From NCBI GenBank assembly GCA_042216015.1, contig JBDGUI010000025.1, forward strand, positions 1 through 22,939: 22,939 nt of DNA. Direction: 5' to 3'. The translations under genes and the position numbers were made by a program. This document shows, piece after piece, positions 1 through 22,854 of this stretch. The number at the start of each line of letters is the position of its first letter. Position 1 is the first letter of the stretch. The notes below the pieces were generated by a model, which did no database searches, was not told the DNA's origin, and worked only from the letters and a program-made list of their open reading frames with translations. This stretch comes from Halodesulfurarchaeum sp. Its GTDB lineage: Archaea; Halobacteriota; Halobacteria; Halobacteriales; Halobacteriaceae.

Positions 1-45
1 GGGTCAGTCCGCCGGGCTTAACCCCCCGCTTGCCGAATCGCCGGT

Positions 46-504
46 ATGAACACGTCCATCGACTCGTTTCTCGCCGGAGACCAGCCCCAGCACGTCGCGG
101 CGTTTTTCGCCAGTGACGTGCTCTCCGACGCCGATACCCTCGCCGATCAGGCCTATGCGGAGGCCGCCGGTGAGGGTGTCAGGATCGTCGTGCCGGCGGA
201 CGCGGGCCGGGCGGCATTCGAGTCGGCCTCGGGGATCGATCCGATGGACTTCGCCGGCGAGGCCATGGGAACCGAGGGAAGGATCGCGACCGACCTCACC
301 GCGGGGAGCTGTCCCGGCGAAGGCGAGACCGACCCATCGAGGACGGGTGGGAAGCATTCCGTCCAGGTCGTCTTTGCGTTCGCGGAGGAACAAAACGAGG
401 AGGCGGGGGGCCTCTACGCCGACGGCGACGTGATCCACGCCTACGCGCGGTGTGCCTGTGGCGAAATGTACTCCGATAAGTGGCTCGTCGGGGAGCGCAC
501 GTAG
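46..504 (+). CDS. Conserved haloarchaeal protein, DUF5807-like, possibly metal-binding
   Basis: 152-aa acidic ORF. The C-terminal FAFAEEQNEEAGGLYADGDVIHAYARCACGEMYSDKW resembles the recalled DUF5807 family. Cys/His residues (SCP, H, CxC) could bind a metal. Confidence 0.7.
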   Translation: MNTSIDSFLAGDQPQHVAAFFASDVLSDADTLADQAYAEAAGEGVRIVVPADAGRAAFESASGIDPMDFAGEAMGTEGRIATDLTAGSCPGEGETDPSRTGGKHSVQVVFAFAEEQNEEAGGLYADGDVIHAYARCACGEMYSDKWLVGERT

Positions 505-15356: not shown

Positions 15357-17981
15357 TCAGGGAACGACGACGATCGTTCCGAAGGAGGCCTCGAGCACGG
15401 CGACCTCCTCGCCGGCCTCGGTCCGGTACTCGGTGTTCACCGAGACCATCTCCGGGTCGACCGTCACCGTCGAGCCATCGATGGACACCTCGACGGGCCC
15501 GCCGGAATCCAGCTGGGCCTTGATCGTGTCCGGATCGCTTCCCTCGAGGGCGGCCATGACCCTTCCGGCCTCGTCCCGGAAGGTCGGCCCGATCTGGGCC
15601 TCGTCCGGGTCGACGTCCGTGGCGACCTCCTCGAGGTCGGGCCGTCCGATCGACGTGCGGATCGGGGCTCCAACGGTCTCGCTCAGGTCGTAGGTGTCGA
15701 CGCCGTGCTGTGGTTCCTCCTCGAAGTACAGTTCGACGCGTTCGAGTTCGGCGTTCAGCGCGATCCCCTGCTCGGACTTCCAGGCCCGGACCGTCCGGGC
15801 GGCCTCGGCGATGTCCTCGCCGACGGTCGTGTCACCGTCGGGTGTCTCGGTTCCGGGCCAGTCGGCCCGGTGGACACTCCCCTCGGTCCCCGGCAGGTGG
15901 TGCCAGATCTCCTCCGCGAGGAAGGGGCTGAAGGGCGCGAGCAATCGGACGACTGCCGAGAGCGTTTCGTAGAGCGCTGCCCGGGCGGCGTCACGCTCGC
16001 CCGGCCGGCCGTTGTAGAGTCGGCCCTTTACCAGTTCGAGGTAGTCGTCGGCGAGGTCCTCCCAGACGAACTCCCGGAGGGTCCTGACGGCGATGTCGAA
16101 CCGATTATCGTCCATCGCGTCGGTCATCTCCCCGGTGACGGTCGCGAGGCGGTCGAGAATCCAGCGGTCGGTGTCTCGGTAGGCCGGCGCGGTGATCTCG
16201 GGTGTATCCGCATCGAGGTGGCCGCTGGCAAAGCGGAAGACGTTCCAGAGCTTCGTCAGGAACCGCGAGGCCGCGGTGACCTCTTTCCACTGGAACTGGA
16301 CGTCGGCCCCCGGTTGTCCGCCGACGGCCATCGCCTGCCGGAAGGCGTCGGCGCTCTCCTCCTCGAGCACCTCGTCGGGCGAGACGACGTTCCCCCGGGA
16401 TTTGGACATCTTGTTTCCGTCGGGGCCGAAGACCATGCCGTTGATCAGCGCGGTGTCCCACGGTTTCTCCTCCTCGAGTGCCGCGGTCCGGAGGATGGTG
16501 TAGAACGCCCAGGTGCGGATGATGTCGTGGCCCTGCTCGCGGAGCGCCACGGGCTCGAAGGGCTCCTCCGGCCAGCCGGCGACGTGCATCGCCGAGATGG
16601 AGGAGTCCATCCAGGTGTCCATCACGTCGGTCTCGCCGGACCACTCACCCGCCCCGCACTCGGGGCACGTCTCGATTGCCGGTTCGTGTTCGGTCGGCTC
16701 GACCGGCAGCTCCTCGACGTCGGCGATCTCCCAGTGGCCACAGTCTTCACACTGCCAGGCCGGGATCGGCGTCGCGAAGACGCGCTGACGGGAGATGACC
16801 CAGTCCCAGCTCATCCCCTCGGTCCACTCCTCGAGGCGGGCGTACATGTGCTCGGGAATCCACTCGACCTCCTGGGCCTTCTCGAGGATCTCGTCCTGGC
16901 GGACCTCGACGAACCACTGATCCTTCGAGAGGATCTCGATCGGGGTGTCACACCGCCAGCAGACCCCGACGGACTGCTCGACCGGCTCGCTGTCCACGAG
17001 CAGCCCCTCCTCCTCGAGGTCGGCGGGGATCTCCTCCGTTGCCTCCTCGATCGAGAGGCCCTCGTACTCCCCGGCGAGGTCGTTGAGGTGGCCGTCCTCG
17101 GTGAGCACCGCCCGGAGGTCGAGGTCGTACTCGGCCCACCAGTCCACGTCCTGTTTGTCCCCGAAGGTCGAGATCATCACCGCGCCGGTTCCGAACTCGG
17201 GGTCGACCGCATCGTCGGCGAGGAGTTCGACCTCCTGGCCGATCGGGGGGACCTCGAAGGTGTCACCGACTCGCCCTGCGTAGCGGTCGTCCTCGGGATG
17301 GACCGCCACTGCGCCGGTCGCGGCGAGGAGTTCCGGACGGGTCGTTGCAATTTCGACGTCGTCGTTGTCGATTCCGGGAAATCTGATGGTGTAGAGGGTG
17401 CCCTCCCGGTCCTCGGTTTCGACCTCGGCGTCCGCGATCGCGGTCTGGCAGCGGGGACACCAGTTGACGGGGTGCTCGTCCCGGTAGACGTAGTCCTTCT
17501 CGGCCATCTCGACGAAGGAACGCTGGGTCTTCCCCCAGTAGCTCGGGTCCATCGTGCGGAACTCCTGGTCCCAGTCCTGGGAGAACCCCAGTCGACGCAT
17601 CTGGGTGCGCATTGCGTCGATCTGGTCCTCCGTGTGATTCACGCACATCTGGCGGAACTCCTCCCGAGGGACGTCGGTCCGGTGGATCCCCTGATTCTCC
17701 TCGACTTTCACCTCCGTCGGGAGGCCGTGGCAGTCCCATCCCTGCGGGAACAGCACGTCCTCGCCCTGCATCCGGCGATACCTGGCGAGGAAATCCATGT
17801 AGCACCAGCCCAGTGCGTTGCCGATGTGGAGATTGCCGGTCGGGTACGGGGGCGGCGTGTCGATCACGTAGTCGGTGGCGCCGGTGTCCTCGTAGGCGTA
17901 CACCGACTCCTCGAGCCAGTAGTTCTCCCACTCGGATTCGATCCGCTCGGGCTCGTAGTTCTCGGGGATGTCCTGTGTCAT
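15357..17981 (-). CDS. valS: Valine--tRNA ligase
   Basis: [16 protein letters not shown] (HIGH motif), [34 protein letters not shown] editing domain, [18 protein letters not shown] and KMSKS. Confidence 0.97.
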
Positions 17982-18080
17982 GGGTGGTCATGGAGTCGCC
18001 GCTTCTCGACGGAAACCACACGAGAAACGCGTGTAGTCCTGCCCGCGAGTCTACTCACGTACTACCGCGACGACGCACAT
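17982..18080 (-). promoter_or_regulatory. Structured valS 5' leader with alternative helices (candidate attenuator)
   Basis: Complementary segments (+ coordinates): 18067-18074 with 17995-18002; hairpin 18044-18059; 18030-18038 with 18014-18022; 18021-18029 with 18000-18008. Confidence 0.6.
18051..18080 (-). CDS. Putative valine-rich leader peptide (uORF) of valS, MCVVAVVRE
   Basis: The minus strand reads ATG TGC GTC GTC GCG GTA GTA CGT GAG TAG. Four of the 8 non-initiator codons are Val. The ATG is about 27 nt downstream of a TTTAAAA box. Confidence 0.7.
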   Translation of the reverse strand: MCVVAVVRE

Positions 18081-18103
18081 ACTCGATTCACACGCGCCGT
18101 CGG

Positions 18104-18110
18104 TTTTAAA
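18104..18110 (-). promoter_or_regulatory. TATA box of the leader-valS transcript
   Basis: TTTAAAA on the minus strand in a very GC-rich context. No comparable box sits at the right distance from the valS ATG itself. Confidence 0.7.
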
Positions 18111-18196
18111 GATTGCCGTTGAATCGCCAGTCCCGTTCTGGCGTTTCTCGTGACGGGTCCGGGAGCTTAAGCACCGGGTCGCCCATCATCCCATGT

Positions 18197-19054
18197 ATGG
18201 CCGGTCGAATCCTCGTCACCGGGGCCACCGGGACCGTCGGATCGGCACTGGTGTCATCTCTCCCCGACGAACGGGACCGCCCCCGCGTCGCGTCCCGGAA
18301 TCCGGACCAGGCCGCAGCGTCATTCGAGTGCCCCGTGGAGGCCGTCGAGTTCTCCCTCGAGCGACCGGAGACGTGGGGAGCGACACTCGAGGGGGTCGAT
18401 AGCCTGTTTCTGCTCTGGCCACCCGGCACGCGCGTGGGGTCGGTTACCGAGTTCATCGCTGCAGCGGGGAGAACCGGAGTCGACCACGTCGTCTTCCTGT
18501 CGGTCCTCGGCGCCGAGAAGCTCCCGGTTCTTCCCCACCACCGCATCGAGCGGTCTCTCGGTTCCGCCGACCTGACGGACACTGTCCTCCGAGCGGCATA
18601 TTTCGCCCAGAACCTGACCGGCGTGCATCGCCCAGAGATCGTGGACCGGGATGAGATTTTCATCCCGGCCGGCTCGGGCCGGCTGGGAATCGTCGACGCG
18701 CGGGACGTCGGTGAAGTCGCCGCACGCATCCTTAAGGAGGGGTCCAATCGGAATCGAGCACACACCCTCACGGGACCTGTGGCCATCGATTTCTCTCGTG
18801 TCGCCCGGATCGCAAGTGACGTGCTCGACCGGGAGATTCGATATCCCGACCCCTCCATTCCCAGATTTGCCGCTCGCATGGTGAAACGGGACGTGGCGCC
18901 CGGACTTATCGCGTTCATGATCGGGGAATATACAGTCGCCCGGCTGGGGTTTGCCTCACGAACGACGGACGACGTCGAAGAAATCCTCGGGCGCAAACCC
19001 CGGTCAGTCCGGACCTTCTTCGCCGATCACCGCTCCCGATTCGAGTCGGGGTAA
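18197..19054 (+). CDS. NmrA-like atypical SDR / NAD(P)H-binding protein
   Basis: From ATG 18197: ILVTGATGTVGS, VFLSVLGAEK, HHRIE, LRAAYFAQNL, VDARDVGEVAA, HTLTGP. CTTAAG box at about 18166-18171. Confidence 0.85.
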   Translation: MAGRILVTGATGTVGSALVSSLPDERDRPRVASRNPDQAAASFECPVEAVEFSLERPETWGATLEGVDSLFLLWPPGTRVGSVTEFIAAAGRTGVDHVVFLSVLGAEKLPVLPHHRIERSLGSADLTDTVLRAAYFAQNLTGVHRPEIVDRDEIFIPAGSGRLGIVDARDVGEVAARILKEGSNRNRAHTLTGPVAIDFSRVARIASDVLDREIRYPDPSIPRFAARMVKRDVAPGLIAFMIGEYTVARLGFASRTTDDVEEILGRKPRSVRTFFADHRSRFESG

Positions 19055-22697: not shown

Positions 22698-22770
22698 GGG
22701 CCCGTAGCTCAGTGGACAGAGTCCTTGGTTCCGGACCAAGATGTCACGGGTTCAAATCCCGTCGGGTCCG
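22698..22770 (+). tRNA. tRNA-Arg(CCG)
   Basis: 73-nt cloverleaf: acceptor GGGCCCG/CGGGTCC, D-arm GCTC/GAGT, anticodon arm CTTGG-TTCCGGA-CCAAG, T-arm ACGGG-TTCAAAT-CCCGT. No intron and no encoded CCA. Confidence 0.96.
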
Positions 22771-22854
22771 CTTCTGCGACGATCGAAGGTGAGGAGCGAA
22801 GCGGACACGGGTTTTGAAGTACGGAAAACGCGAGCGGAGCGAGCGTTTTCAGGT

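Follow-up and report, generated by a model that had tools for sequence, protein, structure and literature searches.

A putative leaderless leader peptide with paired rare valine codons upstream of valS in Halobacteriales, possibly a ribosome-mediated attenuator

Analysis of a 22,939-nt stretch of Halodesulfurarchaeum sp. DNA (contig JBDGUI010000025.1; hereafter the window), together with related loci, revealed a short upstream open reading frame (uORF) in the leader of valS, the gene for valyl-tRNA synthetase (ValRS), which probably begins at the very 5' end of the transcript and contains two consecutive GTA codons, the rarest of the valine codons. The comparison shows the uORF, its reading frame, the rare cognate codons, a U-rich motif downstream and a recurrent long-range helix. 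These features raise the possibility, which we hold tentatively and place slightly short of probable, that the valS leader is a ribosome-mediated attenuator that senses tRNA-Val(UAC). The proposed sensor, a leaderless leader peptide whose decoding rate would be set by charged tRNA-Val(UAC), is well supported by sequence conservation. All leader coordinates refer to the minus strand, RNA nucleotide n corresponding to window position 18081-n, and the leader RNA as quoted here runs from 18080 down to 17979.

The comparison was made with the best 80 of 326 valS loci, all of them from Halobacteriales and none from Haloferacales or Natrialbales. In the NCBI taxonomy, the families among these 80 are Halobacteriaceae, Natronomonadaceae, Halococcaceae and Haladaptataceae, and the record titles also include Halovenus, Halapricum and Halorientalis. 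Four loci (L060, L069, L074 and L077) begin inside valS, and thus lack upstream DNA, which leaves 76. Clustering of the leaders at >80% similarity yielded 40 lineage representatives, L038 being excluded for an uncertain valS start, and L076, which contains Ns, was left out of the leader set. Alignment A1 consists of the window and seven other Halodesulfurarchaeum leaders (the eight genus leaders); alignment A2 excludes L038 for the same uncertain start and L034, L067 and L008 for their length. The leaders of L034, L067, L008 and L076 have an extra 50-300 nt between the uORF module and valS; the insert in L034 (1353-1497) is made of repeats of GGACACCCGGACAGAC-like units, while L076 has its run of N at that place.

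The earlier note on this DNA had proposed that a short ORF rich in Val codons lies in the valS leader, and this proposal is borne out across the set, as uORFs of 7-13 codons with an in-frame GTAGTA were found in 74 of the 76 loci having upstream DNA, spread over at least four Halobacteriales families. A TTTA(T/A)-type box begins 29-31 nt ahead of the uORF ATG in 73 of 74 leaders, behind a BRE-like GAA (BRE, transcription factor B recognition element), and the upstream consensus can be written AnGnGAAnnTTTAT...GTATG. A TTTA-type box with GAA corresponds to the haloarchaeal TATA/BRE motifs as they are described in the available text of PMC4983044. On the basis of the TATA-to-ATG spacing, transcription would start at or beside the A of the uORF ATG, so that the uORF is most likely leaderless, as are most mRNAs of Haloferax according to the available text of PMC7261190.

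The uORF ATG is invariant and has a T at position -1. Its distance from GTAGTA is 9, 15 or 18 nt, all multiples of three, and in every case a stop codon follows 0-4 codons past the Arg codon that ends the conserved core. The position of this stop is lineage-specific, and TAA, TAG and TGA are all used; in G+C-rich DNA, the persistence of a nearby stop would seem to need active maintenance. The N-terminal residues vary between families (MRVVA-, MSAMVS-, MRLTAS-, MDVVPS-, MRVELA- and MDRSS-), from which it follows that the peptide as such is not conserved, and this variation fits what would be expected of a leader peptide. Given the ATG spacing, the T at -1, the conservation of frame and stop and the synonymous variation of the Arg codon, the uORF is very likely translated as a sensor.

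The valine pair is GTA GTA in 74 of 76 loci, without a single synonymous substitution within the pair, and the two exceptions retain a uORF with one GTA, as GTA GCA in L039 (MDRSSVAR*) and GCA GTA in L065 (MGRPPAVR*). Of the 80 loci, 72 contain the exact 8-mer GTAGTACG, always on the valS strand and directly upstream of valS, with a second copy elsewhere in L015 only; within the window, the exact 9-mer GGTAGTACG occurs once, at 18058-18066. In 73 valS coding sequences, only 29 of 4880 Val codons (0.6%) are GTA, with a per-genome median of 0 and a single GTA among the 69 Val codons of the window's valS; in 18 long ORFs of the window, the count is 24 of 591 (4.1%). Even within the uORFs, the remaining 71 Val codons are GTG (35), GTC (30) and GTT (6), and never GTA. 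The codon after the pair, scored in 74 leaders, is CGT in 60, CGA in 6, CGC in 5, CGG in 1, TGC in 1 and TCG in 1; thus, Arg follows in 72 of 74 and varies synonymously, CGT itself making up 5.0% of the Arg codons in valS coding sequences. Under the wobble rules, GUA is decoded only by a tRNA-Val with U34. The choice of codon is the most telling evidence. The suggestion in the earlier note that Val codons serve as the sensor is thereby upheld as regards a Val-codon ORF and shifted as regards its core, which is the two GUA codons and not the GUC pair.

The uORF is also predicted to pair with a distal segment of the leader, forming a long-range helix, P1, of which the window's version is helix (a) (Table 1). 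The 5' and 3' strands of P1 paired more stably with their own partners than with those from other lineages (-18.97 vs -16.48 kcal/mol), and none of 5000 permutations reached this value. When compared with 30 coding windows per genome, P1 had a mean z of -1.0, with 8 of 40 leaders beating all of these windows and 12 of 40 beating at least 29, and a full complement of the 7-mer ending in the first GUA was present in 13 of 40 leaders vs 6.7 +/- 2.2 in shuffles. In 14 Natronomonas-type leaders, P1 takes in GUAG from the first Val codon, which pairs with CUAC, and one of the pairs of P1 is GC in 5, AU in 3 and CG in 2. The covariation score there, 0.158, was reached by 3 of 500 shuffles, although kinship alone can exceed such shuffles; pairing was 94.7% vs 25-43% when the partner was slid by 1-3 columns. 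Halorussus retains an 8+5 bp version. In 24 leaders picked for having the helix, P1 starts at nt 4-6, directly after the uORF AUG, and stops short of the valS AUG by a median of 12 nt (range, 7-144). By these comparisons, P1 recurs above controls without being universal. A second structure, a hairpin whose stem opens within the Arg codon and whose loop contains the uORF stop, has counterparts of other sequence outside the genus: GUGG/CCGC in Natronomonas, CGUUG/CGGCG in Halorussus and, as judged by eye from the fold of L024, CGUCU/AGACG in Haladaptatus.

Downstream of the uORF stop, the window carries UUUCUC, which is a candidate weak termination or pause site. Of the 40 representatives, 35 have a TT[TC]T[CG] motif in the 60 nt that follow the uORF stop, compared with 3.2 +/- 1.7 in 1000 shuffles (maximum 9) and with 137 of 1560 (8.8%) 60-nt windows of valS coding sequence. 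Some relatives have longer U-runs, such as U5CUC in L033 and U7 in L068. Intergenic termination sites of Haloferax volcanii consist of a T stretch with a conserved TC, ending at a C, and insertion of T5C gave 95% termination in vivo (available text of PMC7237163); the valS-leader motif resembles this arrangement. The earlier note had remarked on the lack of a long U-tract, which is true of the window but overlooks that UUUCUC belongs to a conserved terminator-like motif with U5-U7 in relatives. A scan of 17800-18400 for bacterial intrinsic terminators, defined as a G+C-rich hairpin followed by at least five U within 8 nt, found none on the minus strand. A terminator-like hairpin between the uORF and the segment preceding the U-run (nt 12-20/44-53 in the window, with no gap before UUUCUC; also in Haladaptatus) was considered as a candidate and rejected.

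The terminator scan had a single match, at 18125-18143 of the plus strand, in the interval that separates the valS TATA box from the divergent NmrA-like gene. It consists of the hairpin CGCCAG-TCCCGTT-CTGGCG followed by TTTCTCGTGA (18125-18153 in all), and the 9-mer TTTCTCGTG matches exactly the U-rich block (nt 54-62) that the valS leader carries on the opposite strand. By eye, it was not seen upstream of valS in L001 or L002.

In the proposed mechanism, the valS transcript would start at or beside the A of the uORF AUG, and a pioneer ribosome would translate the nine-codon uORF during synthesis of the leader. Because only tRNA-Val(UAC) reads GUA, and GUA is almost never used elsewhere, the speed at which GUA-GUA is decoded should report the level of charged tRNA-Val(UAC), which in turn would report ValRS activity or valine supply. 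With fast decoding, the ribosome would reach the stop and leave, the uORF would pair with the distal strand to form P1, and the closed leader would expose the U-rich site, so that transcription, or survival of the transcript, would be reduced at UUUCUC, by an intrinsic route or through aCPSF1/FttA. Were the ribosome to stall on GUA-GUA, it would instead cover the 5' strand of P1 and melt the stop-codon hairpin; the leader would remain open, and more full-length, translatable valS mRNA would result. The direction of regulation is one that we infer. As to the output, a transcriptional one is favoured, albeit only as a possibility: the distance of the modules from the valS AUG (44-144 nt in L034 and L062, the leaders of L067 and L008 being long as well), together with the conserved U-run, argues for action at a distance. 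A translational output through the helix beside the start site is somewhat doubtful; the argument in its favour is that P1 stands 12 nt from the AUG.

Several observations weigh against this mechanism. The U-run of the window has only three U in a row. The uORF stop lies 1 to 35 nt from the U-run, a spread that led to rejection of a constant distance between a ribosome on the Val codons and a polymerase at the U-run, and six lineages place the U-run too near the Val codons for the two to coexist. The terminator-like hairpin between the uORF and the segment preceding the U-run was not enriched, being present in 20 of 40 leaders vs 16.9 +/- 3.0 with shuffled tails, with a z of +1.22 in the window; its own partners paired at -11.25 kcal/mol vs -10.58 kcal/mol for cross-lineage partners, a marginal difference that 278 of 5000 permutations reached. 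Leaders of the L063 type have a strong hairpin right after the stop, for which simple geometry predicts more hairpin, not less, upon ribosome stalling. P1 is absent or unconvincing in L064, L078, L017 and L051 and is energetically unexceptional in the window, where the 5' segment of the uORF pairs equally well with 8 of 30 valS coding windows of the same length. RNAalifold found no consensus pairs in a MAFFT alignment of 70 leaders, as helix registers differ between families, and a mixed alignment of Halobacterium, Salarchaeum and Halospeciosus gave a 4-bp local stem only. Finally, the invariant GUAGUAC could reflect a motif that acts at the level of RNA.

Masking of ribosome footprints likewise showed no consistent accessibility switch. 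The earlier note had predicted that a ribosome stalled on the Val codons would break helices (a) and (b), favour helix (c) and open the region before the valS start. In the window, masking behaves as predicted, removing (a) and (b), giving a 10-bp (c) and freeing nt 79-86. Across 39 representatives (the set without L034), there was no consistent change at the valS start, for which the values were 0.64 in the free leader, 0.71 with a stalled ribosome and 0.69 with a ribosome at the stop; those for the U-run were 0.61, 0.55 and 0.55.

Table 1. Coordinates of the valS leader elements and of other features of the window (nt, position in the leader RNA; MFE, minimum free energy structure)
Feature	Position in window	Strand	Remarks
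uORF MCVVAVVRE*, ATG 18080 to TAG 18053-18051	18051..18080	minus	equivalents in 74/76 loci
TATA-like box TTTAAAA	18104..18110	minus	first T 30 nt before uORF ATG
Core GTA GTA CGT	18057..18065	minus	two rarest Val codons, then rare Arg codon
Helix (a)/P1, 5' strand GUCGUCGC, nt 7-14	18067..18074	minus	uORF codons 3-5
Helix (a)/P1, 3' strand GCGGCGAC, nt 79-86	17995..18002	minus	ends 13 nt before valS AUG
Helix (b), GUAGU nt 16-20 / ACUAC nt 44-48			5 bp, 0 G.U, -3.2 kcal/mol; encloses stop hairpin nt 22-37
Stop hairpin CGUGAG-UAGA-CUCGCG	18044..18059	minus	begins in Arg codon, uORF stop in loop; in MFE
Helix (c), GACUACACG / CGUGUGGUU	18014..18038	minus	U-rich motif in loop
Helix (d), nt 52-60 / 73-81			9 bp, 1 G.U
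U-rich motif UUUCUC	18022..18027	minus	candidate weak termination or pause site
valS, valyl-tRNA synthetase, 874 aa	15357..17981	minus	Pfam tRNA-synt_1 2e-95, Anticodon_1 9e-36
NmrA-like gene, divergent	start 18197	plus	
Archaeal RNase P RNA, Rfam RF00373	12501-12837	plus	150.9 bits, full length
tRNA-Arg(CCG)	22698-22771	plus	

The four mutually exclusive helices drawn in the earlier note fared unevenly. All of the complementarities lie where they had been placed, but in neither number nor stability do they surpass shuffled controls. The 104-nt leader has an MFE of -38.2 kcal/mol vs -35.5 +/- 3.7 kcal/mol in 200 dinucleotide shuffles (z -0.74), of which 38 fold as well, and four helices of at least 8 bp compare with 1.86 +/- 1.31 in 2000 shuffles, 10.7% of which have at least four. 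Because helix (a), the stop hairpin and a 6-bp version of (c) coexist in the free MFE, the exclusivity rests on (b) and (d), and it is these two that leave the switch as drawn unsupported: (d) is poorly kept, being 77.5% paired in the eight genus leaders, with a central C-G pair in the window only (1/8), and (b), though 97% paired in the genus, has no equivalent outside Halodesulfurarchaeum and leaves no room for covariation, since GUAGU, which forms its 5' strand, never varies. Helix (a), with 8 bp, 1 G.U and -12.7 kcal/mol as an isolated duplex, is 100% paired in the eight leaders, with three one-sided changes to wobble and no double change. The stop hairpin is 97.9% paired and has one compensatory change, from A-U to U-A in L006. 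Helix (c) (9 bp, nt 43-51/59-67, extendable to 10 bp at 42-51/59-68, with 3 G.U) is 76-97% paired, and one of its pairs is A-U in 2, G.U in 2 and G-C in 2 of the 8 leaders; as seen by eye in the alignment, L003 and L006 can form CAGCAC/GUGCUG in its place. Covariation within the genus was not distinguishable from chance, since 69-236 of 500 shuffles reached the observed values, in a test to which eight close sequences lend little power.

These results bear on how much of the structure has been selected at all. That the window's four-helix arrangement is chance complementarity in a G+C-rich leader, with only the uORF and short motifs under selection, is a serious if somewhat improbable explanation: it agrees with the unexceptional folding energy, with the frequency of equally many long helices in shuffles, with the coding windows that pair as well with the uORF segment, with the poor conservation of (d) and with a within-genus covariation no higher than in shuffles, but it leaves unexplained why (a) is fully paired in all eight genus leaders with only wobble-compatible changes, why the stop hairpin and (c) show compensatory changes, and why equivalent long-range helices are enriched in other families. 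P1 might also act on translation alone, in the manner of erm/cat attenuation and in line with the translational output suggested in the earlier note, by limiting the access of ribosomes to valS until a stall opens it, with transcription unaffected. Such a purely translational scheme, which we regard as unlikely, would make sense of P1 beginning next to the uORF AUG and, in 19 of the picked 24 leaders, ending 7-18 nt short of the valS AUG, at a median matching the 5' edge of the Haloferax ribosome, 12 nt before the P site (available text of PMC7261190); it would also fit the release of nt 79-86 by stalled-footprint masking in the window and the Shine-Dalgarno-like GGAGUGA that appears, by eye, beside the 3' strand of P1 in some Haloarculaceae leaders. 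It sits poorly with a valS start region predicted to be mostly unpaired in each state, with a P1 that stops short of the start codon and leaves the AUG uncovered, and with predicted P1 helices 25-144 nt from the AUG in 5 of the 24. It also leaves the conserved U-rich motif without a role, and a P1 once formed should hinder initiation at the leaderless uORF, so that only the first ribosome could sense.

Regulation by valine might be absent altogether, the uORF serving constitutively to recruit ribosomes, to protect the 5' end or to couple the first ribosome to RNA polymerase, and its rare codons merely slowing translation. Haloarchaeal mRNAs are mostly leaderless according to the available text of PMC7261190, so that a 5' AUG is the default site of ribosome loading; moreover, a consistent structural switch could not be modelled, and the third conserved codon, CGT, is a rare codon for Arg, not Val. 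Nevertheless, a constitutive leader is quite unlikely, as it hardly explains why 74 of 76 loci have the rarest cognate codon twice, never replaced by a synonym or by a non-Val codon, or why the downstream gene encodes the enzyme that charges that same tRNA. A further reading takes GGUAGUACG as an RNA recognition element and the ORF as incidental, with ValRS (by mimicry of UAC), tRNA-Val (in a T-box-like manner) or another protein as ligand. E. coli thrS is an autoregulatory precedent for a synthetase that binds a tRNA-mimicking element in its own leader. The nucleotide conservation of the 9-mer exceeds what the peptide would need, GGUAGUACG holds both GUA (the codon) and UAC (the anticodon), and it is often predicted to be unpaired (mean 0.45 vs 0.42 for all positions). 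If the ORF were incidental, there would be no need for an invariant 5' ATG, for a kept frame or for nearby stops that are maintained independently. In addition, UAC does not lie in a conserved 7-nt hairpin loop and is preceded by G, whereas tRNAs carry U33 before the anticodon, and no T-box or other Rfam match was found in 17930-18200 even at E<=10. With T-box-like UGGN tetramers not conserved either (by eye), we consider an RNA recognition element very improbable. A T-box riboswitch proper (RF00230) was rejected, there being no match in the window at the gathering score, as was T-box-like tRNA mimicry, given that, by eye, conservation of neither the UCCA following helix (a) nor the UGGU tetramers extends beyond a few genera.

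The window ValRS is 92% identical to a ValRS of Halodesulfurarchaeum sp., and the valS start conserved among relatives is 17981. Another AUG on the minus strand, at 17991 (17989-17991), lies 10 nt upstream of this start in a different frame and is not conserved; it opens a long alternative-frame ORF (17263-18021) but is probably unused, as ATA stands at that place in L005-L007. On the plus strand, GCTTAAGC (18165-18197) lies about 28-30 nt ahead of the ATG of the NmrA-like gene (18193/18197), a spacing which suggests that this divergent gene is leaderless as well. The window contains no tRNA-Val gene and no second aminoacyl-tRNA synthetase gene with which the cognate-codon rule could be tested. 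Farther upstream, about 60-150 nt ahead of the valS TATA box, four Halobacterium/Salarchaeum loci (L026, L028, L030 and L036) have repeated GTTTAGG...CCTAAAC-like inverted motifs and T-runs, which may be a regulator site or a terminator of the neighbouring gene.

Ribosome-mediated attenuation is a textbook bacterial mechanism that depends on the coupling of transcription and translation, with the E. coli trp, ilv and leu leaders as classical cases and pheM-pheST as one for an aminoacyl-tRNA synthetase. These attenuators share with the valS leader a short leader ORF, tandem cognate codons and a ribosome position that sets the fate of the downstream gene, and the leu leader likewise uses a rare cognate codon, CUA. 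Classical leaders differ in that their ORF follows a Shine-Dalgarno sequence, their terminator/antiterminator pair is defined and their hairpin leads into a long U-tract, whereas in the valS leader the ORF is leaderless, the U-rich site is short and variably placed, and no conserved terminator/antiterminator pair could be demonstrated. In Firmicutes, valS is usually controlled by a T-box riboswitch, which likewise makes synthetase expression depend on how far the cognate tRNA is charged and uses a cognate codon of the leader to do so. No ribosome takes part, the tRNA being sensed by the T-box RNA itself, whose Stem I, specifier loop and T-box sequence are conserved; the ORF features of the valS leader would be superfluous there.

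The nearest match is found in Deinococcus deserti, for which leaderless leader peptides have been predicted before aminoacyl-tRNA synthetase genes, the cysS leader, for instance, having two Cys among its 10 amino acids (de Groot et al., 2014; PMC4007540, which in its available text also describes trp attenuation). As in the valS leader, a 5'-terminal AUG stands on a leadered synthetase mRNA and opens an ORF of about 10 codons with two cognate residues, and attenuation is predicted. The D. deserti leaders operate with bacterial RNA polymerase and terminators, in contrast to the archaeal TATA/BRE promoter and the lack of a bacterial-type terminator here, and the cognate codons of the valS leader are, unlike theirs, the rarest synonym and invariant across families; both systems are predictions. 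Mycobacterial leaderless polycysteine uORFs (bioRxiv 10.1101/834739, in its available text) similarly combine a short ORF, codons of one amino acid and amino-acid-responsive control downstream, but they are bacterial and control cysteine-related operons, not a synthetase. On the archaeal side, termination occurs at U-tracts with or without aCPSF1/FttA (available text of PMC7237163 and PMC8716108). The Haloferax sites share with the valS leader a T stretch followed by C or TC in an intergenic position, and short U-runs would suit leaky, tunable termination; the Haloferax/aCPSF1 sites follow genes, whereas no regulated 5'-leader site coupled to a uORF was found in the literature searched. Haloferax uORFs are mentioned in general terms only in the available text of PMC4983044 and PMC10117724; the TSS table of the former lists no gene names, and no valS entry was found in the available portion of the small-ORF table of the latter. 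Among open-licence papers and bioRxiv preprints, no description was found of archaeal leader-peptide attenuation, of a valS uORF or of an archaeal aminoacyl-tRNA synthetase gene that senses its own product, although a report in a subscription journal could be missed.

The valS leader would thus represent, on a reading that remains plausible but falls a little below probable, a form of leader-peptide attenuation in archaea, spread over at least four Halobacteriales families, in which a pair of the rarest codons would read a single tRNA-Val isoacceptor and in which the output would be a U-tract with or without aCPSF1/FttA, a helix abutting the start, or both, without a bacterial terminator hairpin. 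The conserved element is about 100 nt long and is present in tractable relatives such as Halobacterium, which would make crosstalk between a pioneer ribosome and archaeal RNA polymerase testable. It would also let the regulation of U-tract/aCPSF1 termination be tested, and it bears on the interplay between leaderless initiation and downstream initiation without a Shine-Dalgarno sequence. Its layout suggests a search rule (a TATA box followed at +30 by an ATG that opens a short ORF with rare cognate codons) by which more archaeal regulators of this kind may be found.

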